This document shows positions 34,464 to 57,386 of a DNA stretch of 64,000 nucleotides, piece by piece. Source of the stretch: an uncultured Kiloniellaceae bacterium (GTDB lineage Bacteria; Pseudomonadota; Alphaproteobacteria; Kiloniellales; Kiloniellaceae). The stretch spans positions 158,071 through 222,070 of the forward strand of contig CANMQP010000004.1 in assembly GCA_947500035.1 (NCBI GenBank), read 5' to 3'. Position numbers and translations under genes: made by a program. The notes beneath the pieces were generated by a model. That model did not search any database. It saw nothing but the letters and a program-made list of their open reading frames with translations, and had not been told where the DNA came from. The stretch's first letter is position 1; each line of letters opens with the position of its first letter.

Positions 34464-35585
34464 ATGGTTTACAAGACCGAGAAAATTGCTGACTTCGAGC
34501 TCGGTCTCCTGTTTCGGGACCGGGCGTTCCAGCAGGTACTGGAGCCGGGCGTGCACCGCTTTGTGCGGGGCCGGGGCAAGCTTGAAGTGATCAAGCTGGA
34601 CCTGCGGGCCATGCCGGTGAAGGAGCCCGCTCTGGCGGCGCTCTACCTGACCCACCGGGCGGTGGTCGAGGACCGCTTCGCGGTTGCCGACATGGGCGAC
34701 GGCGAGATGGGCCTGGTCTATGCCGACGGTAAGCTGACGGGGCTCGTCGCGCCGCGCAGCGTGGCCTTCTACGCCAAGGCGCTGCGGGACATGACCATCG
34801 ACGTCCTGGACGCGGCCAACGACATCGAGCTGCCCGAGCGGCTGGTCGCACCCCTGGTGCGGCTGGGAGCAAAGGAGCTGGTGGCGGTGGCCGAGGTGGT
34901 CTCCGACCATGTCGGACTGCTCTACGTCGACGGCGTGCTGACGAAGCAGCTCACGCCGGGCCGTTACGCCTTCGTGAAGGCGCTGCGGCGCATCGATGTC
35001 GTGACCTTCGATCTGCGGCTGCAGAGCCTGGAGGTCACCGGTCAGGAGGTGCTGACCAAGGACCGGATCGGCCTGCGGGCCAACGTGACGGCTGTCTACC
35101 GGGTCGCTGACCCGGTCAAGGCCGTGGCGCTGACCGCGGACCTGAAGGACTTCCTGTACAAGGAGCTTCAGTTCGCTCTGCGGCAGGTGATCGGCACCCG
35201 GACGCTGGAAGAGGTGCTCGGCGATAAGCTGGGCATCAACGCGGCGGTGGCGGAACTTCTGCTGCCGAAGCTCGGCGACGCGGGCCTTGAGGTCCCCTCC
35301 GTCGGTGTGAAGGACATCATCCTGCCCGGAGACGTGCGGGAGCTGATGAACCGGGTCATCGAGGCGGAGAAGACCGCACAGGCCAACGTCATCAAGCGGC
35401 GCGAGGAAACCGCGGCAACGCGGTCGCTTCTGAACACCGCAAAGCTGATGGAGGACAACCCCATCCTGCTGCGGCTGAAGGAACTCGAGGCGCTTGAGAA
35501 GGTGTCCGAGAAGGTCGGCAACGTCATCGTCGGAAACGGCATGGATGGCGTGCTGGACGACCTGGTGCGGATCCGGCCGCGCTAG
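34464..35585 (+). CDS. SPFH / band-7 domain protein
   Basis: 373 aa with band-7-like repeats and a C-terminal coiled coil (EAEKTAQANVIKRREETAA). The assignment is by overall pattern only. Confidence 0.55.
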   Translation: MVYKTEKIADFELGLLFRDRAFQQVLEPGVHRFVRGRGKLEVIKLDLRAMPVKEPALAALYLTHRAVVEDRFAVADMGDGEMGLVYADGKLTGLVAPRSVAFYAKALRDMTIDVLDAANDIELPERLVAPLVRLGAKELVAVAEVVSDHVGLLYVDGVLTKQLTPGRYAFVKALRRIDVVTFDLRLQSLEVTGQEVLTKDRIGLRANVTAVYRVADPVKAVALTADLKDFLYKELQFALRQVIGTRTLEEVLGDKLGINAAVAELLLPKLGDAGLEVPSVGVKDIILPGDVRELMNRVIEAEKTAQANVIKRREETAATRSLLNTAKLMEDNPILLRLKELEALEKVSEKVGNVIVGNGMDGVLDDLVRIRPR

Positions 35586-35714
35586 TATCCCGAATCTGAA
35601 ATTCATTTCATTGAATTTCAGATTCAACGGGACACTAGCTCATAGAATCTAGTGTGATTCAGTCTCTTAAATTCGCCGCATATTATGCGGCGAACTTCAG
35701 AAACATCACACTAG
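35582..35714 (+). repeat. 133-bp structured repeat element, copy A (nested hairpins, CTAG termini)
   Basis: About 90% identical to the reverse complement of 57254-57386. It contains a 14-bp-stem hairpin (gaatctgaaattca..tgaatttcagattc) and an 11-bp-stem hairpin (ttcgccgcata t tatgcggcgaa). The first CTAG supplies the TAG stop of the SPFH gene. Confidence 0.8.
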
Positions 35715-35992
35715 AGCCTGATCGTCTTTCGCTGCTTCAGTGAAAGACGTGAATCAGCCTCTTGACTGAGAGCTAGTCTCTTGCCTGTGCCGGTGACCCT
35801 GCGCGCTCTCATGGCTCCGGGTCAGGCAGACCCGGCTCCGGAGAAGGCAAACCAGGGAGTCCGGATGGCCGGAGGGGCCGGGGGCGGAAAAGCTCCCGGC
35901 CCCGATGGCCATGCCATTGTAGGGACATAATTACGACTAAGATAAGAATGAACTGCGGCAGGTAGCGGCCGCACGCAGGCTGGAATTGATCG

Positions 35993-36541
35993 ATGAAGGA
36001 CACACGGGATCTGATCACTTACCTGGGCACGGGCAACCGGGTGAAGTACGTCTACTTCTGGGGCCACAGGAAAACGGAAGGCCTGGTCACCAAGACCTGT
36101 TTCAGCCAATGGTACGACGCGCCCTTCACCCATGACGGCGATCTTTATATGACGGTCGAGCACTTCATGATGGCCGCGAAGGCGCGGCTTTTCGGAGATG
36201 CAGCCAAAGCAGCCGAGATTCTGGCGGCGGAGAACCCCGGCAAAGCCAAGGCGCTGGGGCGGCAGGTGCGTGACTTCGAGCAATCCCTCTGGGACGAAAG
36301 GAAGTTCGAGATCGTAGTGCGCGGCAATATCGAGAAGTTCGGTCAGAACGCCGAGCTACGGGAATTTCTGCTCAAGACCGGCGCCCGCGTTCTGGTCGAG
36401 GCCAGCCCGCTGGACCAGGTCTGGGGCGTCGGTCTGGCCGCGGATGATCCCTTGATCGAAGATCCGCGCAACTGGCAGGGCGAAAACCTGCTGGGCTTCG
36501 CCCTGATGGAAACGCGCCGGCGGCTGAAAAGCACGATGTGA
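35993..36541 (+). CDS. NADAR-domain protein (DUF1768, YbiA-like)
   Basis: FYFWGHRKTEGLVTKTCFSQWYDAPFTHDGDLYMTVEHFMMAAKARLFGD matches the NADAR core. Confidence 0.72.
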   Translation: MKDTRDLITYLGTGNRVKYVYFWGHRKTEGLVTKTCFSQWYDAPFTHDGDLYMTVEHFMMAAKARLFGDAAKAAEILAAENPGKAKALGRQVRDFEQSLWDERKFEIVVRGNIEKFGQNAELREFLLKTGARVLVEASPLDQVWGVGLAADDPLIEDPRNWQGENLLGFALMETRRRLKSTM

Positions 36542-36654
36542 CACCGGGGATAAAGCTGTTCCCGGAACCGGGAATCCGGCTTCGGAAAGAGACCTGCGTG
36601 GGCACGATCATGGCAGGAGCCGGAGGTGGCACAAGACCTAACGCCGGCCCCGGC

Positions 36655-38007
36655 TCATTGCGCCGTAGAGTTGCTCCAACTCAAACTGCCGTCCTGACGA
36701 TAGAAAGCCTCCGTGAGGGAGCCGCCGCTCCCAAGCGTCAAGGTCGCGAAACCGTTGGCAACGAAGTAGTTCGAACCGGGCCCCTCGACCGTCTTTTCAT
36801 ACCACTCGACATGAGGTGAGTTTAGATTGGTCGCCACGCCCCAGGGAATGCAGCTGTGTCCGCAACATCTGCCATTGAGGAAAACAGGCGTTTTGTCTTT
36901 ATAAGTCTTGTAAACGGCGCCGATATGCACATGCCCCCAATACCAGGTCACGCACCCGTTGTAAGGCGCGATCTGCTGCATGACCTGCTTGCCGAAGACC
37001 GATCTCTTCGATCCGTCAAACGTCAATCCCGTGTGGTGGGAGAGGATGATCAACTCCGTTCCCATGTGCTGCGTCAGGCGGGCCTGGTCGCTCAAGAACT
37101 GGGCCTGCGTTCCCGGCCCGGTCGGCCCGATGTCCCCGACCATGAATCCGTCGGGCCACCCGCTCTGCTCCTTATCGTAGTAGGCGGAGTCCAGCCCCAC
37201 GATACGGTAGGAATCGTTGTAAAGCGCGAAATAGCTGCAGCCGGCCTGAGCTTGAAACAGAGGTGACGTCAAGGCGGTATTGAAATACCCGGTTCCATGG
37301 GCATACATGTCATGGTTGGAGTTGAGGGCGAAGGACCTTCCGGCCGGGCCCGGCCAGGGCTTTAAGAAGTTTTCCCTCTGGTAATCCCGTTCGATCTCGC
37401 CCTTCTGGTCGGTCCCAGCGTAGTAGACATCCCCCAGATGGATGACCAGATCCTCACTCCCCGGCGTGACCTGCCGTGCGCAATCCTGCGCCGCCGCATT
37501 GTCACCACCCCAATCGCCCAGCAGGTAGATTTTGACGTCGTTCGGGATTTCAATGGTCTTGGGCTGGTTATTGAAAGGGGGCGTCGGTCCGGTCTCGTCC
37601 CAGGCGAAGGGACAGTAGATCCACCTGGGGTCAGTCTCGTCGTAGTCCACGTGCCCGAAGTACACCAGGCCGTCACCGTCGACATAGGTCGGAGAACTCC
37701 CGGCATCTCGCAGCAGATTATCCGAATCGCCGTGGAGGAGACTGTAGGCGAGCAACATCTCCCGCTCCCGCTTCAGTTTCGGTTCCGCTGCCGGTCTATT
37801 GCCGTCGCGGATAGTGAGCAGATAGGCGTGACCTTCCCGAATGAGAGGCTCAAGCCTGTTCCTCTCCGCCGCCGGCAATTTGTTCCATTGGTCTTTGAAA
37901 TGCGCGCTCAGTCTCTCCAGATCAGACACTGTCATCTCCTTCATCGGACCATCGCTATAAATGAGAGTATGATATGGAATTATTGCACGTTTAAGTGGTT
38001 TTTGCAA
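36655..38007 (-). CDS. Calcineurin-like metallophosphoesterase
   Basis: GDWGGD ... HLGDVYY ... GHVH motifs. The true start may be the internal MKEMTVS at 37944. Confidence 0.72.
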   Translation of the reverse strand: MQKPLKRAIIPYHTLIYSDGPMKEMTVSDLERLSAHFKDQWNKLPAAERNRLEPLIREGHAYLLTIRDGNRPAAEPKLKREREMLLAYSLLHGDSDNLLRDAGSSPTYVDGDGLVYFGHVDYDETDPRWIYCPFAWDETGPTPPFNNQPKTIEIPNDVKIYLLGDWGGDNAAAQDCARQVTPGSEDLVIHLGDVYYAGTDQKGEIERDYQRENFLKPWPGPAGRSFALNSNHDMYAHGTGYFNTALTSPLFQAQAGCSYFALYNDSYRIVGLDSAYYDKEQSGWPDGFMVGDIGPTGPGTQAQFLSDQARLTQHMGTELIILSHHTGLTFDGSKRSVFGKQVMQQIAPYNGCVTWYWGHVHIGAVYKTYKDKTPVFLNGRCCGHSCIPWGVATNLNSPHVEWYEKTVEGPGSNYFVANGFATLTLGSGGSLTEAFYRQDGSLSWSNSTAQ

Positions 38008-38130
38008 TGCACCTGCCAGTAACTCCCGGAAGGCTGTGGTGATCGCGGACTCGCCCTTCGGTCAGGCACGCATAAACGCTGGCGCAATCTCAGGCGGACA
38101 GAAAGGCCACCCAGGGTCCTGCGCGGCGCG

Positions 38131-38406
38131 TTACCCGCAGTAAACCCGCGTGATTGTGCCTTGCCCATCAAGCTCGAAGTTGATCCGGTCCTCGGCATAG
38201 TCCTGTGTCACCAGATCGCCGGGCTGAATGATACGGCTGTTCAGTGACGCGGGCAGGGTCACGGCGGCCAGCGAGGTTCCGATCAGAGACTGATAGCCCT
38301 CCGCGCCGCAGGCGTCTTTTGCTTCTGTCGCCGTGCAGCCGGACAGGGCAGTCACAGCGAGGAGAGTAACGGCGGTGGGCAGCGATCGCTTCGTCAAGAA
38401 CTTCAT
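38131..38406 (-). CDS. Lipoprotein of the peptidase-inhibitor I78 family
   Basis: Lipobox LSGC, then IQPGDLVTQDYAEDRINFELDGQGTITRVYCG, the typical I78 C-terminal motif. A strong aagga RBS precedes the ATG at 38406. Confidence 0.62.
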   Translation of the reverse strand: MKFLTKRSLPTAVTLLAVTALSGCTATEAKDACGAEGYQSLIGTSLAAVTLPASLNSRIIQPGDLVTQDYAEDRINFELDGQGTITRVYCG

Positions 38407-38487
38407 GCCGGGTGTTTCCTTTTTTACTTGAATTGCGTTTCGGCCAAACAGGAGGCACGTAACTCGAAAGCCCAAAACCTCGGCCCA

Positions 38488-39462
38488 TCATTCGATCTCC
38501 TCAAGGTCGAGCCTGTACCAGTCCTTCCTGGTAAAGAGGTGCAGCGACGAACCGCGGCCGATCAGGGTTGCCTGCTTGGGGATCTTGCCAGCGGGCAAGA
38601 GTAAGCGGCCTTTCCGGGACTTCGCGCTTTCGTTTCCTTGGAGCGACAGCAGGTAGATGCGATCGGGCGGGTCGTTGTATTGCCCGGAGAAGAGGACTCT
38701 ATCCGGCGAGATTGCAAAGGCGTGCGCGCCTCTGATATCCGTCTTTCGGTAGAGGGTCGTAAAGTCACCCGAAACCTGTCCCAGATCAAAGTCCGAGTAG
38801 AAATAGAAGTGGGTCGCGTCCCGGGTCACGTTCAGGGCATAGCAGTCGTCGATAAATTGCTGCTCCTGATCGTGCCGCCAGACGATGTCGCCACGCCGGT
38901 CGAAACAGTTGAGACCAGAGGCGCCGACAGGCGCAGCCGTGCGCTCCCCATTCGGATCAAGATTTCCCCAGCCAAAATTACCGTAGACTCCCTCGTCGAA
39001 GTAGGAGATCCAGATGCGGTCGTTTCCGTCCACGCCAATATCCTGAATGCCGTCGCCGGCGAGGAAGCGTATTTCCTGTCCGCTCGCCTTATCGAAAATC
39101 ATGCCGTTTACATCGTAGTCGTTCTCCGATCGCCACTCACAACGGCTGCCCACAATGACGGCGGATCCGTCCGCAAAAACATCGACCATGGGGAAGGCAA
39201 ACTCAAAGGGCGGGAAGTCGATTTCGCGCGCCTGTTCGCCATCCGTCGTGACGAGTTTGTAGTGAAACGCAGCCCCCATGTCAGGCACCGGAAACACCGC
39301 GAAGCCAGGGTCTTCCCGTTGCCGGTGCACCAGGCTTTCCGCCTTCTCCTCGACATAGAGAAGCTGTGCCGCGCCCTGAAGCGAGACGGAGACCGAAACG
39401 AATTTGAATCCTCTCGGCGGCGGCGGGATTTTGGCCACATGCTGTAGTGCGATCTCTTTCAT
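38488..39462 (-). CDS. Hypothetical protein (beta-rich), downstream of cutA
   Basis: 324-aa ORF. Its start overlaps the cutA stop by 4 nt. No known motifs. Confidence 0.5.
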   Translation of the reverse strand: MKEIALQHVAKIPPPPRGFKFVSVSVSLQGAAQLLYVEEKAESLVHRQREDPGFAVFPVPDMGAAFHYKLVTTDGEQAREIDFPPFEFAFPMVDVFADGSAVIVGSRCEWRSENDYDVNGMIFDKASGQEIRFLAGDGIQDIGVDGNDRIWISYFDEGVYGNFGWGNLDPNGERTAAPVGASGLNCFDRRGDIVWRHDQEQQFIDDCYALNVTRDATHFYFYSDFDLGQVSGDFTTLYRKTDIRGAHAFAISPDRVLFSGQYNDPPDRIYLLSLQGNESAKSRKGRLLLPAGKIPKQATLIGRGSSLHLFTRKDWYRLDLEEIE

Positions 39463-39812
39463 GTCAGACGATCATCCACCCCCGCGCTCTCTGCGATCCA
39501 GGCGGCATAGGCCGGCGTGGTCTGCGCGATGTCGATCTGCAGCAGCGGCGGCAGGTCGTAGGGGTGCAACTTATCGACCAGTGCTTCTATCGCCGCAAAG
39601 CGCGCCGCGAGCGTTTTCGCGGTCAGGACGATCTCCGGCCCCCGCTGGACTGCGCCCTGCCAGCGGTAGACCGAGGCGATCTCGGCCACGTGAACGGCGG
39701 CGGCCAGGTGCCGTTCGACCAATGCCGTCGCGATCACCCCGGCCACCGTTTGGTCGGGCACGGTTATCTGGATCAAAACCGGGCGGGATCCGCCCTCTTC
39801 ACTTGCCGTCAT
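39459..39812 (-). CDS. cutA: Divalent-cation tolerance protein CutA
   Basis: 117 aa from MTASEEGG. The CutA1 fold is recognisable (PVLIQITVPDQTVAGVIATALVERHLAAAVHV ... WQGAV). The long 571-aa ORF-track entry is the antisense read-through of the next gene. Confidence 0.78.
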   Translation of the reverse strand: MTASEEGGSRPVLIQITVPDQTVAGVIATALVERHLAAAVHVAEIASVYRWQGAVQRGPEIVLTAKTLAARFAAIEALVDKLHPYDLPPLLQIDIAQTTPAYAAWIAESAGVDDRLT

Positions 39813-39914
39813 AGCACCGAGCCCCCTGTCTCTTCCGGATGATTTCACCCAAGACGCATTATTCGGAGTGACGCAACCAGAGATACATCGGTAGGATGCG
39901 CCAATCACAGCGTA

Positions 39915-41159
39915 TTGGACAGTGGGAATCGTGAGCGAGGGGACTTTATGAGCGGGGATTTCTGGCGTTCCGTCACGGAAGACCACAAGCTGGCCGTGCG
40001 GATCTGGTGGGCGGAATTCGAGAGGAACCAGGATAACATCCTGACCTATTTTACGGCAGTCGGTAAATCCCCACCGCAAGAGGGCCGGTTCGACCTGCCC
40101 CACTGGATGCAGGAAAATCTGCAGGCCATCGACGCTGACCTGATGTGGGAGTTCGGGCCGGGGATCTCCAAAGACCATCGGCTTGTCATTACGCCTGAAG
40201 CCAGCCGGGCGCTGCGGCCCCTTGTGCGCTATATCCTGGACCAGGCACCGGAGTTCGAGAAGTTCGAGTTCTACGAATACCGGCTGCCGGAAAATCTGGA
40301 ACGCGCAACACAAATGATGACCCATCGGGCCGGCTGGCGGGATCTCTCCGGAATCAGGTTCAGGACCGAGATTGGCGAGAGCAACCGGATCGATATCGTC
40401 TTCCACACGCCCTTCAAAGAGCCGCAGGATGACCAGCTCGGAAAACTCTGGCTCCTGACCGAACAGCTCCTGGGCGAAGAGCTTGCGGAAAAGTGGGTCG
40501 GATACATCGATCAGCAGGCCGCGGCAAAAGGCGGACTCTTCGGCCTGCTGAAGAAACCAGACGATCACCTGCTTCCACTGGAAGAGCTGGCATCCGATTT
40601 CGGGAACCGGATCGCGGAAATCAAAAGCTCGCTGCCTGACCGGCCCTACTTCGAGATTGGAGAAGAACAGGACTGGGTTATGTTGAAACTGACGCCCGAG
40701 GAACAGGAGGACTACGACTTCAAGGACGACCTCTTTGTCGCACCCTTTCTCTCCGCCCCGATGTTCACAGCCATGCACGGAGGCCGAAGGAATTTCTGCC
40801 CCGAGCGCTTTTCGAACCACGGCGAAGCTTTCCTGTTCCTCAAAATGGATGGCGCCGCCGAGGATCTGGATCAGGAGACTTTCGAGGACCGCGCGAGCAT
40901 CGAAGACGCACTCAATGAGGCGCTCAAGAGTCTGGGTTGCATGATCGGTGGCGGCACGGGTTTGCGCTATTCCTACATCGACCTGGCCGTGACGGACCTG
41001 AAGGCCGCCGTGCCGATCATCCAAAGAACACTGCAAGCCGGTAACCTGACCCGGCGCAGCTGGCTCTTTCATCATGATCCCGACCACCAGGCCGAATGGA
41101 TCGGGATCTGGCCGGACAGTCCGGCGCCCTACATGGAAAGCGACCGCGAGCCCTCGTAA
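39915..41159 (+). CDS. Hypothetical protein
   Basis: A 414-aa ORF with coding-like composition. No recognisable motif. Confidence 0.5.
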   Translation: MDSGNRERGDFMSGDFWRSVTEDHKLAVRIWWAEFERNQDNILTYFTAVGKSPPQEGRFDLPHWMQENLQAIDADLMWEFGPGISKDHRLVITPEASRALRPLVRYILDQAPEFEKFEFYEYRLPENLERATQMMTHRAGWRDLSGIRFRTEIGESNRIDIVFHTPFKEPQDDQLGKLWLLTEQLLGEELAEKWVGYIDQQAAAKGGLFGLLKKPDDHLLPLEELASDFGNRIAEIKSSLPDRPYFEIGEEQDWVMLKLTPEEQEDYDFKDDLFVAPFLSAPMFTAMHGGRRNFCPERFSNHGEAFLFLKMDGAAEDLDQETFEDRASIEDALNEALKSLGCMIGGGTGLRYSYIDLAVTDLKAAVPIIQRTLQAGNLTRRSWLFHHDPDHQAEWIGIWPDSPAPYMESDREPS

Positions 41160-41189
41160 ACACCGAATGGCCATGATCCCGTCCGGGCC

Positions 41190-42005
41190 TCAGGCCTTCC
41201 GGCCGAGCGCCTGCACCAGTGGCAAGCCGGAGCAGCCGAAGGGATCACGGGCGAGGTCGCGCCAGGCCTCGACGATTTCATCGCGCTCCTCGCGCGTGCA
41301 CCAGCCCTTTTCCAAGGCGCGCACGCCGAGACTGCCGCTCGCCAGCGTTTCGGCCAGATTGCAGAAGTAGTCCGCACGCTGCTCGCCCCTGGGCGCCTGC
41401 TCCCAGTCCAGCGAAACCTCGATATCAACGAAGCCGTTGTGCTGTAGCAGAGGGCCGAGAACACGCCCGACATCCGGGTCGCCGCCGGTCGAGATAATGC
41501 CCTGGCGGACGATCCGGTTCAGCCTCTGCAATCGCGCGTCCCCGGGCAGGATGACGACCTGCTCATTGATGATGTCGCGGAGGGCGACGTGGCCACCAGG
41601 CTTGAGAACACGATGGATCTCCCGCATCGCCCTGTCCCGGTTCGGAATGTGGCAAAGGACGGTCTGGGCAAAGACGAAATCGAAGCTCTCGTCGGCAAAA
41701 GGCAATTCGAAGAGGTTGGCTTCGCGAAAGGAAACATTCTCGACGCCCATGGCCTGCGCCATGGCCTGCGCGCCGACCAGCTGCGCCCCATTGATGTCGA
41801 TCCCGACGGTTTCTCCCTTCGGCGCCCAGTCCGCGAGACCGACCGTGATGGAACCGGGGCCGCATCCACAATCCAGAATCCGGCTATCCTCCCTGATCCG
41901 GTCCCGGGCGAATTGCACCGAAGTCTCGGCATTCCTGAACCGCAGATAGCCGAGAAAAGCGCTCTCGTGACCCAGACTGTAATCGGATAGGGATGCTTCA
42001 GACAT
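41190..42005 (-). CDS. Class I SAM-dependent methyltransferase
   Basis: Motif I (VLDCGCGPGSITVGLAD) and motif post-I (LKPGGHVAL). The ATG at 42005 has a gaggaa RBS. Confidence 0.8.
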   Translation of the reverse strand: MSEASLSDYSLGHESAFLGYLRFRNAETSVQFARDRIREDSRILDCGCGPGSITVGLADWAPKGETVGIDINGAQLVGAQAMAQAMGVENVSFREANLFELPFADESFDFVFAQTVLCHIPNRDRAMREIHRVLKPGGHVALRDIINEQVVILPGDARLQRLNRIVRQGIISTGGDPDVGRVLGPLLQHNGFVDIEVSLDWEQAPRGEQRADYFCNLAETLASGSLGVRALEKGWCTREERDEIVEAWRDLARDPFGCSGLPLVQALGRKA

Positions 42006-43462
42006 AGCTGTTCCTCTTTTTCTTGACGACAAAGCCGCGCAGCGGAGCGGCAAAATTCAGATCGACAGGGCTGCAAAGTCATGAATTAAAGGCGACTCCG
42101 CCGCTTATCTCAAATAACACAAAGATCTTTCTCAAGTAACAACATTCATACATGATGATTTTGTTAATTTTAATGTTATTTTTCAATTTGTTATGAATCT
42201 CTTTAAAATCGGATTTTTTTCGAAAAAAAAAAATGATGCAGCTATAGTCAAGTCAACGATCAAGGCCCTGCTTTCGGCAAAGAGGTCTCGCCGCACCACA
42301 GGATGGGAAGTCTGTGTTTAATTTTCTATCCGGAAGCTCTTGGTTATAAGGCGTCCATTTTTTATTATTATTTTCTAACGCTTTAAATATCTTTTTCCAA
42401 CAACTAAGATGCAGAAACCCCTGCGCTCCGAGATGCGGCGACACTGCGGCAGCCAGGTTCAAGGGTGGCAAGCGTTTCAGCAAATGACGGCTGTGCGATG
42501 CTCGATTCCGCAGGGCAGTCGATCAGATTTTGAAGCGATATTTAAAATATTAAACATGTAAAAATAATAATCTATATTTCAATGCTATATACTTTCGAAT
42601 TTTATATTTAAAGAAAATGTCCCGGAACGCTCCGCAACGATGTCACGGCCCGCCACAACAGCGTCATCACCAGCCGTTTAAACTCTATTGCGGCGCATCT
42701 GCCGCATAACCCGACAGAGTCAAATCACGGAACCGGGCGATCAAGAAGCCACGACTGCGCGGCAAGAAAAATTGCGGAGGTCATCGTCTTTTCTGTCCTT
42801 GATCAGAAATACTCCGGAGCAGCGGCGAGTCCCGGGCGCGCGAGGGGGCCTTCCAACGCAATATTGCAGCAATGAATTTGCGCCGAGCCTCCGTAGTCAC
42901 AAGTAACCCGAGACGAACGGCGTCGGAATTTCTGGAGCCAGACGTTACTTGACTTTCGAAGCAATACTGAAGACCTGAACAGGGCGCTGCAGCGAGACGA
43001 CGCGGAAAAACTCTTCCAGTGGCTCCTGGTATGATTTGGTCTTGCCCAAATTCGCCGGATATCGGTAAAGTTTCCGTCCTGTCTTTCTGAAAGCAAACAG
43101 CCGGAGCCGCGCTTTGCCATCATAACCACCGGTCTCACCCAGGTCATGAACCCATGACCTAAACCCACCCGATACACGACCGCGCCCTTCTTCGGGGCGG
43201 CGGCCAGGTATTTTCACTGCTTCGCCCGGGTGGCGGTTCGAGACCGGTATGGCATGCTCCGACAGATTCTCCGGACCGCTGCGCTCATGTATTTTTAGTG
43301 AGCCCCCCGGCACTCATCCCGCTCTCTTTGCAGAACGCCGGCCGCGGGAGTAAAGCGCCAACCAGCGTCGCGTGATCAGACCTCCATGCCGCTCATCAGG
43401 AACTCAGCAAAGATTCCCTGACCGTCACCTCGGCGGACTTCCAACAGGAAGACCGAAACGAG

Positions 43463-48703: not shown

Positions 48704-48796
48704 GCGGGGCGCGATCGCTCTTGCGTGCAGCGACTCAGAGCGAAGACCGCCCTCCCCCGGTTTATGAAGGCGCTGATTCCCGACCCGCTTTGAGTT

Positions 48797-49738: not shown

Positions 49739-49802
49739 TATCAAAAGCCCCGCAGCACGGCCCAAGCGATAGAAAATCACGAGAGACATCAGGAGCCCCC
49801 GC

Positions 49803-50711
49803 ATGACTGACCGGCGCGTTACTTTCGACTTCGAGGTCGATTTCTCCAATGGCGGCGGAATTCAGGGTCAGGACTTTCGTCTCGATATCGAAGGCGAGGA
49901 AATAAGCGACGACGCGCTCGCCGCCGCCATCATCAAGGACCTGCGCCTGCTGATGGTGGGTGAGGTCCGCATTCTCAACAAACGGATCATCGAGGAACGG
50001 CATAAGCGCGCAAAACACGCCACGGAAAGAAGAGAAACCGGGGCCGATGCTTTCGTCGATCTCAGCCACAGCATCGTCGAGGGCATGATCACCTACAAGG
50101 GTCTGCCCGCGCCGCTGATCTGCGACCATCTTTCCTTTCCCGACTCTCATGCTCACTACGCAGAGGGAACGGAGTTTCAGATCGGAAAGATCGAGATGGT
50201 AGCGAACACCGGCACCTATATCGACACGCCGGCGCACCGCTACCGTGACGGCCACGATCTGGAAGGCCTGATGCTGGAGAAGGTTTCGAACCTGCCGGGC
50301 CTGGTGGTGCGGGTGCCCGGTGCGAAAGACCGCGCCATCGACTGGCAGGTCTTCGCCGCCAGCGAAGTGAGCGGCCGCGCGGTCCTGGTGGAAACCGGCT
50401 GGGACCGGCATTGGGGCAGCGACCGGTACTTCGAAGGTCATCCCTTCCTGACCGAGGCGGCGGCGGTTTACCTCCGCGATCAGGGCGCAACCCTTGTCGG
50501 GATCGACTCTTTGAACATCGACGATACCAGCGGCGGCACCCGCCCGGTCCACTCGGTGCTTCTCAAGGCGGAGATTCCCATCGTCGAGCACATGACCAAT
50601 CTCGCCGCCCTGCCCGTCGAAGGCTTCCGCTTCTTCGCCGCCCCGCCGAAAGTGCGCGGCATGGGCACCTTCCCGGTGCGAGCCCATGCGCGGCTGGAGG
50701 CAGTCTCTTAA
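49803..50711 (+). CDS. Cyclase-family protein (kynurenine formamidase-like)
   Basis: DLSHSI..G..Y and the downstream His/Asp pattern match the putative cyclase family. The N-terminal 50 aa may be an over-extension (alternative start MVGEVRIL at 49953). Confidence 0.72.
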   Translation: MTDRRVTFDFEVDFSNGGGIQGQDFRLDIEGEEISDDALAAAIIKDLRLLMVGEVRILNKRIIEERHKRAKHATERRETGADAFVDLSHSIVEGMITYKGLPAPLICDHLSFPDSHAHYAEGTEFQIGKIEMVANTGTYIDTPAHRYRDGHDLEGLMLEKVSNLPGLVVRVPGAKDRAIDWQVFAASEVSGRAVLVETGWDRHWGSDRYFEGHPFLTEAAAVYLRDQGATLVGIDSLNIDDTSGGTRPVHSVLLKAEIPIVEHMTNLAALPVEGFRFFAAPPKVRGMGTFPVRAHARLEAVS

Positions 50712-50727
50712 AAGAGACCGCCGGTCA

Positions 50728-51843
50728 TCAACCTGACGCCTTCTCGCGCATGGCCAGGAAGCGCTGATCGCCCACGACGCTCCACTTGCGCGCGCCTTCC
50801 AGATATTCGCTGTAGGAGGCATGGATCTTCTTGGTGGTGGCATCTGTCGCGGCCAGCTCCGTGATCACCTCCTGGGTCGCCTCACCAAGGGCAACCACGA
50901 TCTCCTCCGGCCATTCGCGCAGAATCACACCCTGGTCCCGCACCAGCGGTTCGAGGGACACAATATTGTGGCGGGTGAAGTCGGCCAGAGTTTCGTTGGC
51001 GGTCGCGGAGCAGGCCGCCGCGACGATAGCCTGCAGGTCGCCGGGCAGAGCTTCATAGAGCTCCTTGTTGACAATGGCCTCCAGGGCCGGGCCGCCCTCA
51101 TGAAACGCGGGCAGGTAGTAGTTTTTCGCGACCTTGTGCAGGCCGAAGGCCAGATCGTTCCAGGGGCCGACCCACTCGGCGGCATCGACGACACCGCTCT
51201 GCATGGCTGGGAAGATCTCGCCCGGCGGAGTGAGGACGACCGTGACACCGAGACGCCGCAGGGCCTCGCCACCGATGCCCGCGATGCGCATCTTCAGGCC
51301 CTGGAGGTCGGCGAGGCCGGTGATCTCCTCACGGAACCAGCCGCCCGCCTGCACGCCGCTGCTGCCGGCGTAAAAGCCCTTCAGGCCGAATCCACTATAG
51401 ACCTCGTCCCAGAGCTCCTGCCCGCCGCCATAGTAGAGCCAGCCGGTCATTTCCCAGGCGGTCAGGCCAAACGGCAGACCGGTGAAATAGTGCAGCGCTT
51501 TGCTCTTGCCCTGCCAGTAATAGGGCGTCGCATGCGCCATCTCGGCAGCCCCGTTGCGCACCGCATCGAAAACCTCGAAGGGCGGCACCAGTTCGCCCCC
51601 GGCGAAAAGCTTCACGGTCAGGCGCCCGCCGCTCATCGCCGTGATACGGTCGGCGAGCCGCTGCGCATTGACGCCGACCCCCGGTGCGTTTTTCGGCCAG
51701 GGCATCGCCATGCGCCATTCGATCCGTTCCTGTGCGATGGCGGGAGCGCCCAGGATACCCGTCGCGGCTGCGGCGGCCGTGGTGGCGGCGGCGCCCGCAA
51801 CGGCGCCTTTTGCAGCGGTTTTCAGAAAGCGGCGTCGTTTCAT
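50728..51843 (-). CDS. TRAP transporter substrate-binding protein (DctP family), Tat-signal
   Basis: MKRRRFLKTAAKGAVAGAAA twin-arginine signal and a DctP fold. No dctQM partner genes are adjacent in the window. Confidence 0.82.
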   Translation of the reverse strand: MKRRRFLKTAAKGAVAGAAATTAAAAATGILGAPAIAQERIEWRMAMPWPKNAPGVGVNAQRLADRITAMSGGRLTVKLFAGGELVPPFEVFDAVRNGAAEMAHATPYYWQGKSKALHYFTGLPFGLTAWEMTGWLYYGGGQELWDEVYSGFGLKGFYAGSSGVQAGGWFREEITGLADLQGLKMRIAGIGGEALRRLGVTVVLTPPGEIFPAMQSGVVDAAEWVGPWNDLAFGLHKVAKNYYLPAFHEGGPALEAIVNKELYEALPGDLQAIVAAACSATANETLADFTRHNIVSLEPLVRDQGVILREWPEEIVVALGEATQEVITELAATDATTKKIHASYSEYLEGARKWSVVGDQRFLAMREKASG

Positions 51844-52086
51844 CTTGTGTCCCCTTTTGCGTTGCGCAAAGAAATTCCACACCCCGGATGCTGCCGTAAA
51901 ACGCCGCCCGGTTCCAGTTCAGACTGGGGAGCGCGTAGATGCGCGATGTGTTTTACCTCCTGCCGGGCAGGAAAAAATTCGATAGCGACCGGCGCCGTCT
52001 TTTACGTTAGATTGCGAATGATTTTATAAAGGGGCGCCTCTTCAGCTCCAAAGGAATTTCCTCGGCAAAGAATTAGGGAGACCAGC

Positions 52087-53061
52087 ATGCTGTTCATCAC
52101 CAATCGATTTCCCAAGCAAAGCATTCGAACCACGAAAGGCCGCAGCTTCGATTTTGACCTGAAAAACAACGCGGCCAGCAACTCGGTGTTCTTTTGCGAG
52201 TATCACAAGAAGGGCGACTGCACAGAGCTCGGCAGCATTCCCTTTCTGCAGAGGCTCAAGGATGCCAAGTACCGGCAGGTCCTGATCTACATCCACGGTT
52301 TTTCGAACCTGCCCGAAGCGGTGTTCGATGGCGCCATGGAGTTTCAGAAACTCTGCGATCAAAAGAAGAAGGGCGAAATCCTGGTCATCCCCCTGATCTG
52401 GCCCTGCGACGACGACCTGGGTATCGTTCAGGACTACTGGGACGACCAGAAGGCCGCCGACCAGAGTGCCTTCGCCTTCGCGCGCGTGCTGGAGAAATTC
52501 ATGAGCTGGCGCAGCGATGAAAAGCACAATCCGCAGTCTGATCCCTGCCTGAAGCGGATCAACGTTCTGGCGCATTCCATGGGCAACCGGGTCCTGCGCC
52601 AGACACTCGCCGCCTGGAACAAATACGACCTGGCCAATGGCGTTCCGCTGCTGATGCGCAACACCTTCCTGGTGGCCGCCGACGTGGTGAACGAAACCCT
52701 GCATGTGGGCGAACGGGGCGAGCTGATCTGCCATGCCTCCCGCAACGTGGTGGTTTACTACGCCTCCGACGATCTGGCGCTGCGCGCGAGCAAGGCGTCG
52801 AACCTGAAGAACAAGATTGCCTCCCGGCGCCTGGGCCACAGCGGTCCGGAAAACATGGACCTGACACCGCGCAACGTCTATGCCGTCGAATGCGACGACG
52901 TGAACAACGCCTACGATAGTCCCAAGGGCCATTCCTACTTCAGATCGGGCCGCAAGAAGGGCAAGCCCGGCTTGGTTTTCGATCACATCTTCGCAACCCT
53001 GCTCTCGGGCCGGGTCTTCCCGGAAGACGAGTTTCGGCGCACCACCATTATCCGGGAGTAA
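52087..53061 (+). CDS. Alpha/beta-hydrolase (DUF900-like) with GxSxG (AHSMGN)
   Basis: The serine-nucleophile elbow AHSMGNRV and the overall size fit the family. Confidence 0.6.
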   Translation: MLFITNRFPKQSIRTTKGRSFDFDLKNNAASNSVFFCEYHKKGDCTELGSIPFLQRLKDAKYRQVLIYIHGFSNLPEAVFDGAMEFQKLCDQKKKGEILVIPLIWPCDDDLGIVQDYWDDQKAADQSAFAFARVLEKFMSWRSDEKHNPQSDPCLKRINVLAHSMGNRVLRQTLAAWNKYDLANGVPLLMRNTFLVAADVVNETLHVGERGELICHASRNVVVYYASDDLALRASKASNLKNKIASRRLGHSGPENMDLTPRNVYAVECDDVNNAYDSPKGHSYFRSGRKKGKPGLVFDHIFATLLSGRVFPEDEFRRTTIIRE

Positions 53062-53134
53062 ATCCGCGACAGACCGGCTACGGCAATGTGCGTTTAAACA
53101 GACACAGAACTCGCTATAGGCGGCACGGCCTGAT

Positions 53135-53830
53135 TTAGGCAATCGGAAGAGAGGCGAGAGTCTCGACGAAGGTTTCGGTTCTTGTCCGCCGGTAGAAGAC
53201 CAGTTCGGCGGCCTCCGGCGTGAAGGTCCCGAACTCCCGCTCGCGGTTTTGGTCGATGAAATCCACGAAGCCGGCCGGGTCCGCCAGAGGCGCATTGAGC
53301 AGCAGAAGCGAAGCGTGCGCGGTGTTGCGCACCCGCTCCGCCGAAATCTCGCCGCCGGGCACGGAAATCTCGATCCCTTCGAGGGCCTGGAACAGAGCCA
53401 CGCGAAAAGCTCGCAGATCGACGCTCGGCCAGCCCTGCACCAGCACCGATGAATTGCCGCAGGTCAGTCCCTGCAAGATAATGGATAGCCCGCGCAGTTG
53501 CGGCAGCAGCTCTGCGACCCGTTCGGCATAGATCCGTGCGCGCCGGTCTCCGGTTGGAATGTCGCCCCGATAGCCCTCGATCGAGCGCAGAGTCATGTGA
53601 AAGTTGCTGCGGTCGTAGCAGAACTGCCCGCCTCCCGCGCGCGCGATCAGGTCAGGGCAGATCCCGGCAATGGACTCGCGGAAGGGAACGCGCAGGATCA
53701 GACTCAGGCCCCAACGCGTCTCACCGATCTCAGGCGGCAGGTCACAGGCCATCGCGTTGCCGAGCGCCCTGTCCCGCGCGCCCGACCAGATGCGGTCGTA
53801 GATCGTTTTAAGAGTGTGATTTTGGGTCAT
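53135..53830 (-). CDS. 2H-phosphoesterase superfamily protein (LigT-like)
   Basis: Two H-x-[ST]-x motifs (FHMTL and AHASLL) about 95 aa apart. Start at MTQNHTL. Confidence 0.5.
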   Translation of the reverse strand: MTQNHTLKTIYDRIWSGARDRALGNAMACDLPPEIGETRWGLSLILRVPFRESIAGICPDLIARAGGGQFCYDRSNFHMTLRSIEGYRGDIPTGDRRARIYAERVAELLPQLRGLSIILQGLTCGNSSVLVQGWPSVDLRAFRVALFQALEGIEISVPGGEISAERVRNTAHASLLLLNAPLADPAGFVDFIDQNREREFGTFTPEAAELVFYRRTRTETFVETLASLPIA

Positions 53831-53901
53831 AGCCTGGATGCTTGATTGGGGCGGCAAGCTATCCCGCAAAGCCGCTGGACTTCAACAGGGAAGAAGACGT
53901 T

Positions 53902-54450
53902 TCAACCATATTCATCGACAAACGGCAGGTGTGCCCCAAAGTAGAAAGGCGTTTCGTAAAAACCCCAGACACCGTCTCTGCGGGCGGCCCTGGTCTCGAC
54001 GTAGCCCTTCCACCAGAGTGCCTCGCGCTCCTTGACCGTAAGATGCCCGAACTGATCGAGGACGACCTGCGCCGGATCGTAGTAAAGGATCACGAAGGTC
54101 TCTGTATCTGGTTCTGGGGCATCTGCTGCTTCGGACAACTCCGAAAGCGGCCCATAGACTTTCACTCTGATACCGGGTTGCGAGAGCAGAGTTCTGATGA
54201 CACTCGACCGGCCGTCCTGACCGAAAACATAGTCGGCCTGCGCTTCGCCATTGCAGTCGTTGGGAACACAAGGCAGAGCCCGAAACGCCTCGATACGCCC
54301 TTCCACGATCACGCTTCTCAGGTCTGCTGCGAAATCCTGCGCCGTCTCCCTGTCCGACTTCGGCCAGGCGTAGGCCACGACGACCAGGCCCAAGGACAGA
54401 ATCGCGAAGGCCAGTTTGAGCCACCTATGATGCTTCTGCCAAATCTTCAT
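53902..54450 (-). CDS. Membrane-anchored hypothetical protein
   Basis: N-terminal TM (WLKLAFAILSLGLVVVAYAW). No motif. Confidence 0.45.
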   Translation of the reverse strand: MKIWQKHHRWLKLAFAILSLGLVVVAYAWPKSDRETAQDFAADLRSVIVEGRIEAFRALPCVPNDCNGEAQADYVFGQDGRSSVIRTLLSQPGIRVKVYGPLSELSEAADAPEPDTETFVILYYDPAQVVLDQFGHLTVKEREALWWKGYVETRAARRDGVWGFYETPFYFGAHLPFVDEYG

Positions 54451-54586
54451 CGGAAAATCGCCTCAAACAGCGCCCTTGGTGCAGTGGGCAGCCCTAACAG
54501 TTCCAAAAAGCCTCACCATTTGATAACTGCCGGGAATGGTCATTCTGAGGCGGAACCTCACCAGAAAGATCCTTAACCTCTACCAC

Positions 54587-54858
54587 TTAGTGTGGTGATC
54601 GGGGAATTCGTGTCATTAATGATCGCTTTTGCGGTTCTCTGAGCAGGAAGCGTCGCGCTGGCGATGCCAAAGCATCGGCGAGTGGCGCTGACGCCCTTCA
54701 GAGAGCCGCAAAAGCGACCTTTACGGCGCCTTTGCAAGTCCCGCGGATGTCGTTGCGCGGGCTTTGTGATGCTCCACATCACGGCAGCCCGCGCGCCTAA
54801 CCGCGCAACACGCAAAGGCGTCATAAACGATACGAATTCCTCGATCACCACACCAAAA
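54587..54858. mobile_element. MITE-like non-coding element with about 35-bp imperfect terminal inverted repeats and nested internal inverted repeats
   Basis: Left end ttagtgtggtgatcggggaattcgtgtcattaatgatcg. The right end is its near reverse complement (cgtcataaacgatacgaattcctcgatcaccacaccaa). There is an internal pair gcttttgcggttctctga / tcagagagccgcaaaagc. No ORF. Confidence 0.65.
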
Positions 54859-54885
54859 TAGACGAAACACCAAAGGAATATTTGA

Positions 54886-55209
54886 ATGCTTACGAATCTG
54901 GACCACCTGCCCGGCTGGCGCATTAAAGAACACAAAGGACTGGTGCAAGGCAGCACCGTGCAATCCAAGCACATTGGCCGCGATATCTTTGCGGGTCTCA
55001 AGAACATCGTCGGCGGCGAGCTGAAGGGCTACACCGAACTGCTGGAAGAGGCCCGCAACGAGGCCTTGCGGCGCATGATGGACCAGGCCAAGACCGCGGG
55101 TGCCAACGCCGTCCTGAACATCCGTTTCGCAACTTCGACCATTACCCCCGGCGCGGCGGAAATCCTGGCCTACGGCACCGCGGTGATCGTCGAGCAGGAG
55201 GGCGTCTGA
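54886..55209 (+). CDS. YbjQ / UPF0145 (DUF74) family protein
   Basis: 107 aa. GGELKGYTELLEEARNEALRRMMDQAKTAGANAVLNIRF is typical of the family. Confidence 0.72.
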   Translation: MLTNLDHLPGWRIKEHKGLVQGSTVQSKHIGRDIFAGLKNIVGGELKGYTELLEEARNEALRRMMDQAKTAGANAVLNIRFATSTITPGAAEILAYGTAVIVEQEGV

Positions 55210-55210
55210 C

Positions 55211-55654
55211 GTGGGTATTCTGGAGATTGCCCTCTATTTCGGTACGCCGGCCGTATTGATTGTGATCGGTTTGATCGTCGGAACCTATAATGAGCGGCGG
55301 CACTACCGTTCGATCAGACAGCGGGAAGAGGAATTGCGTTCACTGCCGATCCACTCCGGCGAGACCCTGCCCGAAGGCTTCGAGGCGGCGGAGGTAAAAC
55401 TCGTCAGCGGCGCGACGGTGATCGCGGAAGACCGCTTCAAAGCCCTGCTGGCCGGCATCCGCAACATCTTCGGCGGCCACATGAGAAGCTACGAGAGCCT
55501 GCTGGACCGGGGACGGCGCGAGGCGGTGCTGCGCATGAAGGAAGCGGCCCGCAGCGACGGTTTCTCGGTGATCGTCAACACCCGCTTCGAAACCGCCCGG
55601 ATTGCCCAGGGCATCGAAATCCTCGCCTATGGGACCGCGGCGAAACAGCGTTAG
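55211..55654 (+). CDS. YbjQ / UPF0145 family protein with an N-terminal TM helix
   Basis: A paralog of the upstream gene (FGGHMRSYESLLDRGRREAVLRMKEAARSDGFSVIVNTRF). The gap between the two genes is 1 bp. Confidence 0.68.
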   Translation: MGILEIALYFGTPAVLIVIGLIVGTYNERRHYRSIRQREEELRSLPIHSGETLPEGFEAAEVKLVSGATVIAEDRFKALLAGIRNIFGGHMRSYESLLDRGRREAVLRMKEAARSDGFSVIVNTRFETARIAQGIEILAYGTAAKQR

Positions 55655-55746
55655 CCTATTGCCCGAGACCGCCGCGTGCCCCTCCCCGCGGCGACGGCCC
55701 AGCAGCGACGGTCCAGTGGCCCCAAAAGACCGGAGCGCGGCCTCTC

Positions 55747-57138
55747 TCAGGCCGCCCGGATGCTTGCCAGAAATTCCTGCACGGCCCCACGCAGGCTCTC
55801 CGATTGCCGATCGAGGCCCTTGGAGGCTTCCAGCATTTGAGCGGAGGCGTCGCCGGCCTGCTGAGCGGTCTGGGTCACGCCCCCGATGCTGCCGGAGACG
55901 CTTCGGGTCCCGGCCGCCGCTTCCTGGATATTGCGCGAGATCTCACCGGTCGCCGCGCTCTGCTGCTCGACCGCCGAAGAGATGCCGGTCGATATCTCGC
56001 TGACGGATTCAATGGTGCCGACAATTTGCCCGATCGCTTCGGCGGAGCTCTCTGTCGCCGCCTGTATCTCGGCGACCTGGGCCGCGATCTGATCGGTTGC
56101 CTGCGCGGTCTGGTTGGCCAGCAGCTTGACCTCGCTGGCCACCACGGCGAAGCCTTTGCCAGCCTCGCCCGCACGCGCGGCCTCGATGGTCGCATTCAGG
56201 GCCAGCAGATTGGTCTGTTCGGCGATCTCCTGAATCAGATTGACGACCTGGTCGATTTTCCGGGCCGCGCCGGTCAGGCCCTCGACCTGTGTGTTGGTAT
56301 GGCGGGCCTTTTCCATGGCCTCGCCGGAAATCCTGCTGGAACTTGTCACCTGCCGGCCGATTTCTTCGATCGAGGATGTCAGCTCCTCCGAGGCGGCGGC
56401 CACGGTTTCCACATTCTCCATGGCCTTCTGGGAGGTCTCTTCGACCGACGAGGCCTGGTCGCGGGTTTGCCCGGCGATGGCGGACATTTCCTGAGCCGTC
56501 GAGAGAACCTCCGCCGAAGCCGAGGCGACCCCCTCGACCACAGCCTTGATGCTGCTCTCGAACTGCTGCGCCAGGGACTCGAGCGCCTCCTCTCGCGCCC
56601 TCTTGCCTTCATCCAGGTAGATCGAAATCGCCAGGTTCATGTCGAGCAGCGCTGCCTGATTGATCGCCGCCAGTGCATCCGCGCGTCTGGCCCTGATCCG
56701 GCTGTTGGACAAACGGCTGTCGAAGTGATCGCTGATACGGCGCTGCAGCTCGGTGGTGATATAGGCGTAGCCGCCGATGTACCACTCCGGCTCCAACCCG
56801 ATCTTGTTGTGAACCCGCCCGACCACGCGTACGGACTCGATATAATCCTGATCGAAATGTCCCGACGCGATCAACAGCCAGTGCTTTAATTGCTGTGCTT
56901 CGGCGTGTTTCTTTGCGTCTTCGCCGTCGAAGAGCCCGTCGGGCACAGAATAGCCGGAGATGTGCCGATAAAAGTCTCGAAGAATTGACGGGAGCTCTTG
57001 CTCCAAAAAGGGTTTTATTTGCCTGAGGGTATGCTTTGTCTCTTCGCTGATGCGGTTAAATTGAAGCAGCTCTTGATGAGTACCTGAAGTGGTCACGCCT
57101 AAGCCCCGTATTCCGATAATGTCAATAGGATCAAGCAC
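55747..57138 (-). CDS. Globin-coupled sensor / methyl-accepting chemotaxis protein (HemAT-like)
   Basis: An N-terminal sensor-globin-like domain of about 150 aa, then an MCP signalling domain (highly conserved region [34 protein letters not shown]). No TM helices. Confidence 0.75.
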
Positions 57139-57253
57139 CTAGTTAAAGAGCAAAATTCCTAAGTATTTGTGAAAAATCCCCGATTAGTTTGTAATTGCGC
57201 CACAAATATGGAAGCGGTGCGCGCTTAAAACCAAAGCCCTACAAAGGTGGCGC

Positions 57254-57386
57254 CTAGTGTGATGTTTCTGAAGTTCGCCGCATAATCTGCGGCGAGTTTT
57301 AGAGACTGAATCACACTAGATTCAATGAGGTGGTGTCCCGTTGAATCTGAAATTCAATGAAGTGAATTTCAGATTCGGGATACTAG
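57254..57386 (-). repeat. 133-bp structured repeat element, copy B (inverted relative to copy A)
   Basis: Its reverse complement is about 90% identical to 35582-35714, with compensatory changes in the stems. Its terminal CTAG supplies the TAG stop of the minus-strand gene 57383-57910. Confidence 0.8.

Follow-up and report, generated by a model that had tools for sequence, protein, structure and literature searches.

A 64,000-nt stretch of DNA from an uncultured Kiloniellaceae bacterium (GenBank assembly GCA_947500035.1, contig CANMQP010000004.1, positions 158,071 to 222,070; hereafter the window) holds two inverted copies of a 133-nt repeat, copy A at 35582-35714 on the plus strand and copy B at 57254-57386 on the minus strand, each of which starts on the stop codon of a gene. 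We consider it highly probable that both are copies of a non-autonomous, non-coding miniature inverted-repeat transposable element, or MITE, of the genus Denitrobaculum that inserts into the sequence CTAG. The element is a new family of a known kind, distinguished by its CTAG target specificity. A first-pass annotation made from the sequence alone had offered, as one of two readings, a MITE with a preference for CTAG or TA targets, and this reading is supported by an exact empty site in a related genome, by at least 18 dispersed copies, nearly all of them bounded by CTAG, and by ends that are far more conserved than the interior. With a size below the limit of roughly 300-500 bp for MITEs, dispersed copies, and a target-site duplication evident from the comparison of filled and empty sites, the element has several of the properties by which MITEs are recognized.

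The insertion is seen most directly at the 3' end of a slipin gene (SPFH/Band_7, PF01145; 373 aa; 34464-35585, plus strand), the TAG stop of which (35583-35585) lies in the left CTAG of copy A (35582-35585), as the first-pass annotation had observed. The nearest relatives of this slipin belong to Denitrobaculum tricleocarpae and Pelagibius (Kiloniellales, Alphaproteobacteria), at 92-96% identity, and D. tricleocarpae R148 matches the window at 82-93% identity over orthologous DNA; the window therefore belongs to another species of the same genus. Look-ups of the exact sequences of the window's slipin, 175-aa protein, and sensor protein returned no record. At the slipin locus of R148 (L003) the sequence reads ...CGGCCGCGCTAG|AGCCTGATCGTCTTTCGC... 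across a single CTAG (CGCTAG|AGCCTG), with no element, whereas the window reads ...CGGCCGCGCTAG[TATCCC...CACACTAG]AGCCTGATCGTCTTTCGC... In the BLAST alignment the R148 CTAG (L003 6119-6122) matches both 35582-35585 and 35711-35714 of the window, with breakpoints exactly on CTAG, and AGCCTGATCG, which follows the right CTAG of copy A (35711-35714), directly follows the slipin stop codon in R148. Since R148 has a single CTAG where the window has two, 129 bp were inserted and either CTAG or its central TA was duplicated; the two CTAGs of copy A are the target duplicates. The element is counted here as 133 nt with both flanking CTAGs, of which the inserted DNA makes up 129 bp.

The slipin stop codon is older than copy A, because the element-free gene of R148 has the same CGC TAG ending and encodes the same 373-aa protein. 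Thus, the earlier proposal that the element supplies or recreates stop codons must be recast: a TAG lies within the CTAG at both genes, but at copy A the stop was there before the insertion, and it is kept because the duplicated target includes it. Slipin ends in RPR* in both the window and R148, two residues short of the RPRK[V/G/S]* ending of its other, more distant orthologues (L001 2338-2346, L002 4665-4673, and L004 6120-6128), and therefore the CTAG arose in the Denitrobaculum lineage and was hit later. An AAG-to-TAG change gave rise both to the earlier slipin stop and to the CTAG into which copy A was subsequently inserted. Beyond copy A, slipin still has its native downstream hairpins, which are present in element-free R148 as well.

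Copies A and B are reverse complements of each other over exactly 133 nt, differing at 7 positions (95% identity, closer than the approximately 90% first estimated), and their similarity ends precisely at the outer CTAG on either side, beyond which the flanks are unrelated. Their coordinates, inverted orientation, exact length, and CTAG at both ends are as first described. Copy B has its 5' end at 57386 and lies 115 bp upstream of a globin-coupled sensor gene (start 57138). Within the CTAG at this 5' end (57383-57386, minus strand) is the TAG that terminates a conserved 175-aa hypothetical gene (57383-57910, minus strand), also in agreement with the first description. The 175-aa protein has 10 homologues at 38-100% identity, none of them with a Pfam domain, and the gene order GntR/aminotransferase regulator, 175-aa gene, protoglobin-MCP gene is kept at loci L021 and L023. 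Orthologues at L021 and L023-L025 (75-80% identity) terminate at the same codon position with TAA or TGA, have no element downstream, and are followed by a spacer that aligns to the sequence after copy B. R148 lacks both copy B and the whole 175-aa gene: in place of window positions 57223-57996 it has 103 bp (L034 5814-5916), the sole DNA between its GntR/aminotransferase regulator and globin-coupled sensor genes. R148 appears to have lost the 175-aa gene, because the more distant L021 and L023 keep it in the same synteny. L034 was considered as an empty site for copy B but is uninformative, since the entire gene is absent there.

Further copies were sought with a 20-mer from the left arm in 185,579 species genomes and with a 20-mer from the right end in metagenomes. 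R148 contains at least 14 more full-length copies on 8 scaffolds, 88-96% identical to copy A and set in unrelated flanks; all of them are 133 nt long except one with a 3-nt deletion. The left CTAG is intact in 13 of these 14 copies and the right CTAG in 12, and the departures are single-base decay, at L006 (CCAG/CGAG) and at the right end of L018 (TTAG). Two more copies, approximately 75% identical and each exactly 133 nt, occur on metagenome contig L033. We refer to the 16 closely related copies (2 in the window and 14 in R148) as the alpha family and to the two diverged L033 copies as beta; among these 18 copies, CTAG is found at 16 left ends and 16 right ends. The genome scan found the 20-mer in the context of the element in no species other than D. 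tricleocarpae among the 185,579 genomes, and a blastn search of 72,556 plasmids with the 133-mer returned no match. Copies in the two species are up to 97% identical, as against 82-93% for the orthologous flanking DNA, a level of similarity that would fit recent activity or selection on master copies. The genome scan also returned a rearranged half copy. Hits at L014 and L016 in the genome scan, both from other organisms, and at L029 and L030 in the metagenome scan share the search word of 20-21 nt alone and were set aside as chance matches.

The inserting enzyme would be a transposase, probably of the DDE type, acting in trans and placing the 129-bp unit into the palindromic CTAG and duplicating either CTAG, as IS5 does, or the central TA, as elements of the IS630/Tc1 type do, in which case the element itself would start with G and end with C. 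Duplication of the target would account for the CTAG that bounds every copy. Where the CTAG lies on a stop codon, an insertion in either orientation would leave the protein unaltered because the duplicated target keeps TAG in frame. Insertions inside genes would presumably be purged by selection, so that the survivors would gather at C-TAG stops and in spacers. The distribution of copies is consistent with this scheme: none of the 18 lies inside a gene, compared with 31-49% of other CTAGs.

Of the 18 copies, 10 share sequence with a gene's stop codon. Homology or Pfam identifies nine of these genes as real and full-length. They encode slipin, the 175-aa protein, TetR, NnrU, PurK, a solute-binding protein, a cyclase, an amidohydrolase C-terminus, and a phosphonate-binding protein, alongside a 239-aa open reading frame (ORF) with no Pfam match. 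Half of the ten are abutted by the 5' end of the element (both window copies, L013, L019, and L033b) and half by its 3' end (L010, L011, L018, L020, and L033a). Abutment is possible either way round because CTAG is its own reverse complement, and at L018 even the decayed TTAG reads TAA on the gene strand, so that the stop is retained. The orientation that copies A and B share relative to their genes, which the first-pass annotation took as a feature of the element, is therefore a coincidence of these two copies. The remaining eight copies have no contact with a stop codon, some being located between two co-directional genes or upstream of a gene start.

The window has 36 CTAG sites where 116 are expected, a three-fold depletion, and 7 of the 36 are within the two copies. 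For comparison, 74 other CTAGs in 176 kb of Denitrobaculum DNA comprise 5-7 on stop codons, 23-36 in likely genes, and 31-46 in intergenic DNA, these counts being based on crude ORF and GC3 gene calls. Eight of the 16 alpha copies abut a stop codon, as against 13-18% of the other non-coding CTAGs, an excess of approximately 3-4 fold (Fisher p ~0.002). Thus, of the two family-wide biases that were to decide the matter in the first-pass annotation, that in orientation is absent and that toward stop codons is present. We attribute the excess mainly to selection against insertions in promoters, leaders, and RNA genes, and a benefit of having a hairpin directly after the stop is a possible contributor.

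In structure, each copy is made up of two hairpins with a 10-nt linker between them. In hairpin 1 of copy A (35586-35638, plus strand) the stem has 14 perfectly paired bp, GAATCTGAAATTCA/TGAATTTCAGATTC, and continues beyond a 3-nt bulge as TCCCG/CGGGA; the 14 bp are perfectly paired in copy B as well. Hairpin 2 (35649-35714, plus strand) combines an outer stem, CTAGTGTGAT/ATCACACTAG, with a perfect run of 10 bp, and a central stem, TTCGCCGCAT/ATGCGGCGAA, with a perfect run of 10 bp in copy A and 8 bp in copy B. The first-pass description of two long perfect hairpins is accurate in that there are two strong hairpins, one of them with a 14-bp stem, but the second has perfect stems of at most 10 bp, not 11. 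The four arms of the element, each of approximately 24-27 nt, carry one related motif, (C/G)TAGTRT...TCTGAARTTCR, in alternating orientation, so that each hairpin resembles a foldback composed entirely of inverted repeats. The outermost arms, which match in inverted orientation at 16 of 24 positions, would act as imperfect terminal inverted repeats, each end also being part of its own hairpin, and inside the TA/CTAG the ends read GTATCCCGAATC... and GTGTGATGTTTC... In copy A each single hairpin is itself bounded by CTAG, which suggests that the element may have descended from two foldback units that lay side by side and came to move together. The consensus carries stop codons in each of the six frames, it has no coding capacity, and the element is AT-rich relative to its genome of 59% GC.

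This architecture invites comparison with the CcrM-associated intergenic repeats (CIRs) of Alphaproteobacteria, for which PMC2229807 gives a length of about 110 bp, two inverted-repeat arms with a linker, TA termini, GANTC sites, and strictly intergenic locations. By that description the CIR architecture is the architecture of the element, and all copies of the element are intergenic or at stops. Recognition sites for CcrM (GANTC) lie in copy A at 35592 and 35621 (hairpin 1), 35645 (linker), and 35656 (hairpin 2), and in copy B at 57308, 57319, 57343, and 57372. Each window copy thus has 4 sites, where 0.47 are expected from its own composition (P ~0.001), in a window that is itself two-fold depleted in GANTC (166 sites where 307 are expected, 8 of the 166 within the two copies). 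The diverged beta copies have 3-4 GANTC sites, partly elsewhere as read from the alignment.

It is conceivable, though rather unlikely, that the element is a member or diverged relative of the CIR1-4 repeats and that its GANTC cluster is functional, either in methylation-dependent protein binding or as a link between transposition and replication. The clustering of sites in a GANTC-depleted window, their retention in the beta copies, and the shared two-arm plan speak in favor of this idea. However, the comparison with CIR1-4 is one with their published description, and CIRs are said to be highly conserved across alphaproteobacterial species, whereas the element occurs in one genus and has no match on the plasmids searched, alphaproteobacterial megaplasmids among them. 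In addition, GANTC in CIRs lies in or at the terminal loop, whereas in the element it lies in the stems and linker, and two of the four sites mirror each other in a single palindrome, which leaves approximately three independent sites. CIRs were described from Caulobacter, with copies also in Brucella (Chen & Shapiro 2003), and as described they share with the element an alphaproteobacterial host, the two arms and linker, GANTC, TA termini, and intergenic position; they differ from it in length (about 110 bp versus 133 nt), in being widely conserved rather than confined to one genus, and in that insertion with target duplication is directly visible for the element. How CIRs move is stated to be not known in PMC2229807 and PMC10969869.

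A more speculative extension, to which we assign little probability, is that CTAG specificity combined with a palindromic target constitutes a safe-harbor strategy that homes on C-TAG stops. Under this proposal the GANTC sites, several of which lie 8-15 nt from an arm end, would couple transposase binding or excision to hemimethylation after replication, or else a methylation-sensitive hairpin directly after the stop would tune mRNA 3' ends. If true, the GANTC coupling would be an alphaproteobacterial counterpart of the Dam control of IS10 and IS50.

The other reading offered by the first-pass annotation, an oriented terminator or stabilizer module at gene 3' ends, was pursued as the possibility that the element is a selected RNA module, transcribed with the upstream mRNA, whose hairpins terminate transcription or block 3'-5' exonucleases in the manner of REP stabilizers and which is kept after stops because it is useful. 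We regard this as very improbable, although the folding itself is strong. Folding energies of the RNA lie between -54 and -73 kcal/mol for either strand (z-scores between -9 and -13, with none of 200 shuffles as good), so that the hairpins are very stable on both strands. The 10 copies that start exactly at a stop codon and the excess of stop abutment described above also lean toward such a module, as do the double-sided changes at five base pairs once the diverged subfamily is included. Against it, orientation is evenly divided, which would require two different RNAs to do the same job, and the eight copies away from stops include those upstream of gene starts and between co-directional genes. 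The terminator scan found no intrinsic terminator within either copy, and neither hairpin is followed by a T-run in either orientation, the hairpins ending in ...CACACTAG or ...GGGATACTAG; a consensus scan found no promoter inside the copies. The slipin gene, moreover, still has its native downstream hairpins, as does element-free R148. Among known RNA families, tRNAs alone match in the window at the Rfam gathering score, and in a relaxed Rfam scan of 35540-35760 all hits scored 12-26 bits against gathering scores of at least 57 bits. Nearly all of these were miRNA-precursor families, with two bacterial sRNA families, and we take them as generic hairpin hits.

The first-pass annotation described the changes between the window copies as largely compensatory and as preserving the structure. 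None of the 7 differences between copies A and B is part of a double change: three are unpaired (in a loop, the linker, and an internal loop), and the other four, at columns 55, 57, 91, and 100, each disrupt a base pair in copy B. Across the 16 alpha copies most stem substitutions likewise break pairs, and there is one double-change pair (columns 95:109, CG to UA in three copies). When the two diverged copies are included, five pairs show double changes (10:48, 14:41, 15:40, 82:122, and 95:109), the covariation score is reached by none of 500 shuffles, and slid controls score lower. Structural conservation by covariation is thus found across the subfamilies but not between the window copies, and the foldback character is therefore maintained over the longer divergence.

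The strongest constraint, however, is one other than pairing, as the distribution of changes between paired arms shows. The right terminal 23 nt, which lie outside the retrieval pattern of the genome scan, carry substitutions at 0.8% per site-copy, compared with 7.2% in the pairing partner (arm 3) and 5.3% in arm 2. A purely structural constraint predicts the opposite of a terminal arm that is approximately 9 times more conserved than its partner, and this difference therefore points to constraint on the end rather than on pairing. It indicates that the right end is a putative transposase-binding end and not one side of an RNA helix. As a separate observation, hairpin 1 of the copy at L011 (6598-6649) is a perfect 23-bp palindrome that has lost the 3-nt bulge and whose 5' and 3' arms are exactly complementary. 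The change has the look of a quasi-palindrome corrected through template switching, and therefore correction at the DNA level can also yield changes that appear compensatory.

Alternatively, the element may have been mobilized as single-stranded DNA by an HUH/Y1 transposase of the IS200/IS605 or RAYT type, as with PATEs and REPINs. It would then insert 3' of CTAG without duplication, the second CTAG would be its own right-end cleavage site, and the hairpins would be recognition structures. A filled site of the form CTAG-[...CTAG] is formally the same as that left by a duplication, and the element has two subterminal hairpins rather than one long foldback, with weak terminal inverted repeats; both hairpins also fold well when treated as single-stranded DNA (between -33 and -38 kcal/mol; z-scores between -8 and -12). 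Even so, the chance that this explanation is correct seems very small. The outermost arms are related in inverted orientation, as are the ends of DDE-type elements, and the conserved block extends to the last base before the TA/CTAG, whereas at the ends of IS200/IS605 elements such as IS608 the recognized hairpin is set back from the cleavage site. A second repeat family resident in the window, with termini related to those of the element, has the plan of a classical MITE, its terminal inverted repeats being 43 nt long. A non-exhaustive look through the loci showed no tnpA or RAYT gene. The idea that the two inverted L033 copies, which flank 1.25 kb, form an insertion sequence (IS) or composite transposon was rejected because the intervening ORFs of 239 and 153 aa are not transposase-like (the 239-aa ORF alone was scanned against Pfam, with no match); each of these copies adjoins a gene stop, that of the 239-aa ORF between them and that of a 268-aa gene outside.

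Several observations weigh against the interpretation of the element as a CTAG-targeted MITE, or at least sit uneasily with it. The partner search, which used fuzzy matching of both 24-nt ends and the first 12 nt in the window and all loci together with inverted-repeat scans of 14 R148 loci, found, across the 64-kb window and approximately 130 kb of Denitrobaculum loci, no element that has matching ends and carries a transposase; it returned the known copies, one rearranged half copy (L020 4021-4094), and a relative of the second family (L001). The exact empty site exists for copy A only, copy B being compared with distant element-free orthologues, and a duplication of 4 bp fits the sequences as well as one of 2 bp. 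The outer inverted repeats are weak, and the five pairs with double-sided changes between subfamilies imply that the foldback is maintained in some way. Finally, the excess of stop codons among insertion sites is not fully explained by target choice alone, and it calls for either selection on insertion sites or an advantage gained from a hairpin directly behind the stop.

Elements with the same target are known among autonomous insertion sequences. IS630 of Shigella, which has a single transposase gene (PMC2170065), transposes specifically into CTAG and duplicates TA, according to the title of Tenzen & Ohtsubo 1991 as cited in PMC2170065. IS870 of Agrobacterium vitis, which has a large ORF1, and ISMt1 insert in CTAG in such a way that the TAG of the target serves as the stop codon of the IS's own ORF (PMC13630536). 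The likeness of the element to IS630, IS870, and ISMt1 lies in the tetranucleotide target, and IS870 is also alphaproteobacterial. IS630 and IS870 are autonomous and encode their transposase, however, and the TAG taken by IS870 ends its own ORF, whereas here it is the prior stop of a host gene.

Also similar are the TA-ended MITEs attributed to transposases of the IS630/Tc1-mariner type, namely RUP of S. pneumoniae, Correia/NEMIS of Neisseria, and ERIC. Like the element, these are non-coding sequences of 100-160 bp with dozens of dispersed intergenic copies, inverted-repeat ends (imperfect in the element), TA termini, target duplication, and presence/absence polymorphism between relatives. The element differs from them in being strictly CTAG-targeted rather than inserting at any TA, in having two hairpins and a linker instead of one end-to-end stem, and in having more than half of its copies on a stop codon; RUP, in addition, has the partner IS630-Spn1. 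Like REP/BIME sequences and the RAYT-mobilized REPINs, the element is a short intergenic palindromic repeat often found just downstream of genes, a position from which such repeats can stabilize the upstream mRNA. REPs are GC-rich sequences of 20-40 nt that occur in hundreds of copies with a conserved tetranucleotide head and no target duplication. The element, by contrast, is 133 nt long and relatively AT-rich, with duplicated CTAG bounds and conserved termini, and it does not belong with REPs or REPINs. Transcripts of the TA-ended MITEs fold into long stem-loops (PMC2229807), as does the element.

Our findings provide a base-exact example of a target-specific MITE that seems to provide stop codons while in fact landing on existing ones, an appearance that arises because the palindromic target CTAG contains TAG. 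They also contribute a case in which insertion polymorphism can be seen among the CIR-like repeats of Alphaproteobacteria, a poorly understood group with two arms and many GANTC sites, and may offer a possible entry to the mobility of these sequences. Otherwise the element is ordinary selfish DNA of one little-studied marine genus. For genome annotation a caveat applies, because copies could be mistaken for terminators or sRNAs and seed spurious antisense ORFs beginning MNLKFNE... The first-pass annotation rightly flagged two such ORFs as artifacts: one at 34380-35627 (minus strand), which starts within copy A and runs antisense to the Band_7 gene, and one at 57341-58018 (plus strand), which starts within copy B and runs antisense to the conserved 175-aa gene. 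Codon-position GC of the former is 0.83/0.36/0.71, as against 0.74/0.35/0.88 in the slipin frame.

The second MITE-like family occupies approximately 270 bp of the window (54587-54856), with 43-nt terminal inverted repeats starting TTAGTGTGGTGATCGGGGAATTCG, and its ends resemble the right end of the 133-nt element; the related termini read TAGTGTGGTG...GAATTCG, and the end of this second family is GTGTGGTGATCGG... It is absent from the orthologous site of R148 (L034 ~8302-8309; empty site ACCAC CTAA AATAGA), where a TA duplication needs 2 changes and a 4-bp duplication 3, so that this site may slightly favor TA. A relative of this second family lies in L001 at approximately 4100-4260.

Partial matches to the 133-nt element were also encountered. 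At L020 (4021-4110, with the half copy at 4021-4094) a rearranged partial copy contains all of hairpin 2 and, fused to it at a GATTC, the 3' part of hairpin 1, the relative orientation of the two being reversed; it may be a product of inversion or recombination, or else hairpin 2 may be able to exist alone. Unrelated metagenome contigs show isolated matches to the element's final 25-51 nt (...GCGACGAACTTCAGAAACATCACAC), at L026 (1509-1559) and, with lengths of 25-31 nt, at L027, L028, L031, and L032. The L032 match falls in a putative groES-groEL spacer, immediately upstream of an ORF that starts MAAKEVKF. These isolated matches may be relics of related elements, or the end motif may be common to a wider family.

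Elsewhere in the window, two adjacent tRNA genes (33889-34031), approximately 430 bp upstream of slipin, contain three of the window's CTAG sites. An intergenic AT-rich palindrome at 6965-7031 pairs two 28-nt arms at 89% complementarity (GTTTAGGTTGAGAATTCAGAAGCGACGAT...ATCGTAGTTTCTGAATTCTCAACCTGAA); it lacks bounding CTAGs, and its core, TTCTGAATTC, faintly recalls the arms of the 133-nt element. A GC-rich hairpin at 20761-20840 has 33-nt arms, 91% complementary and 14 nt apart (CGGTGCCGGCCCACTCCCCCTCCCGACCACCCA / TGGGTGGTCGGGAGGGGGAGTGGGCTGGAGCCG).

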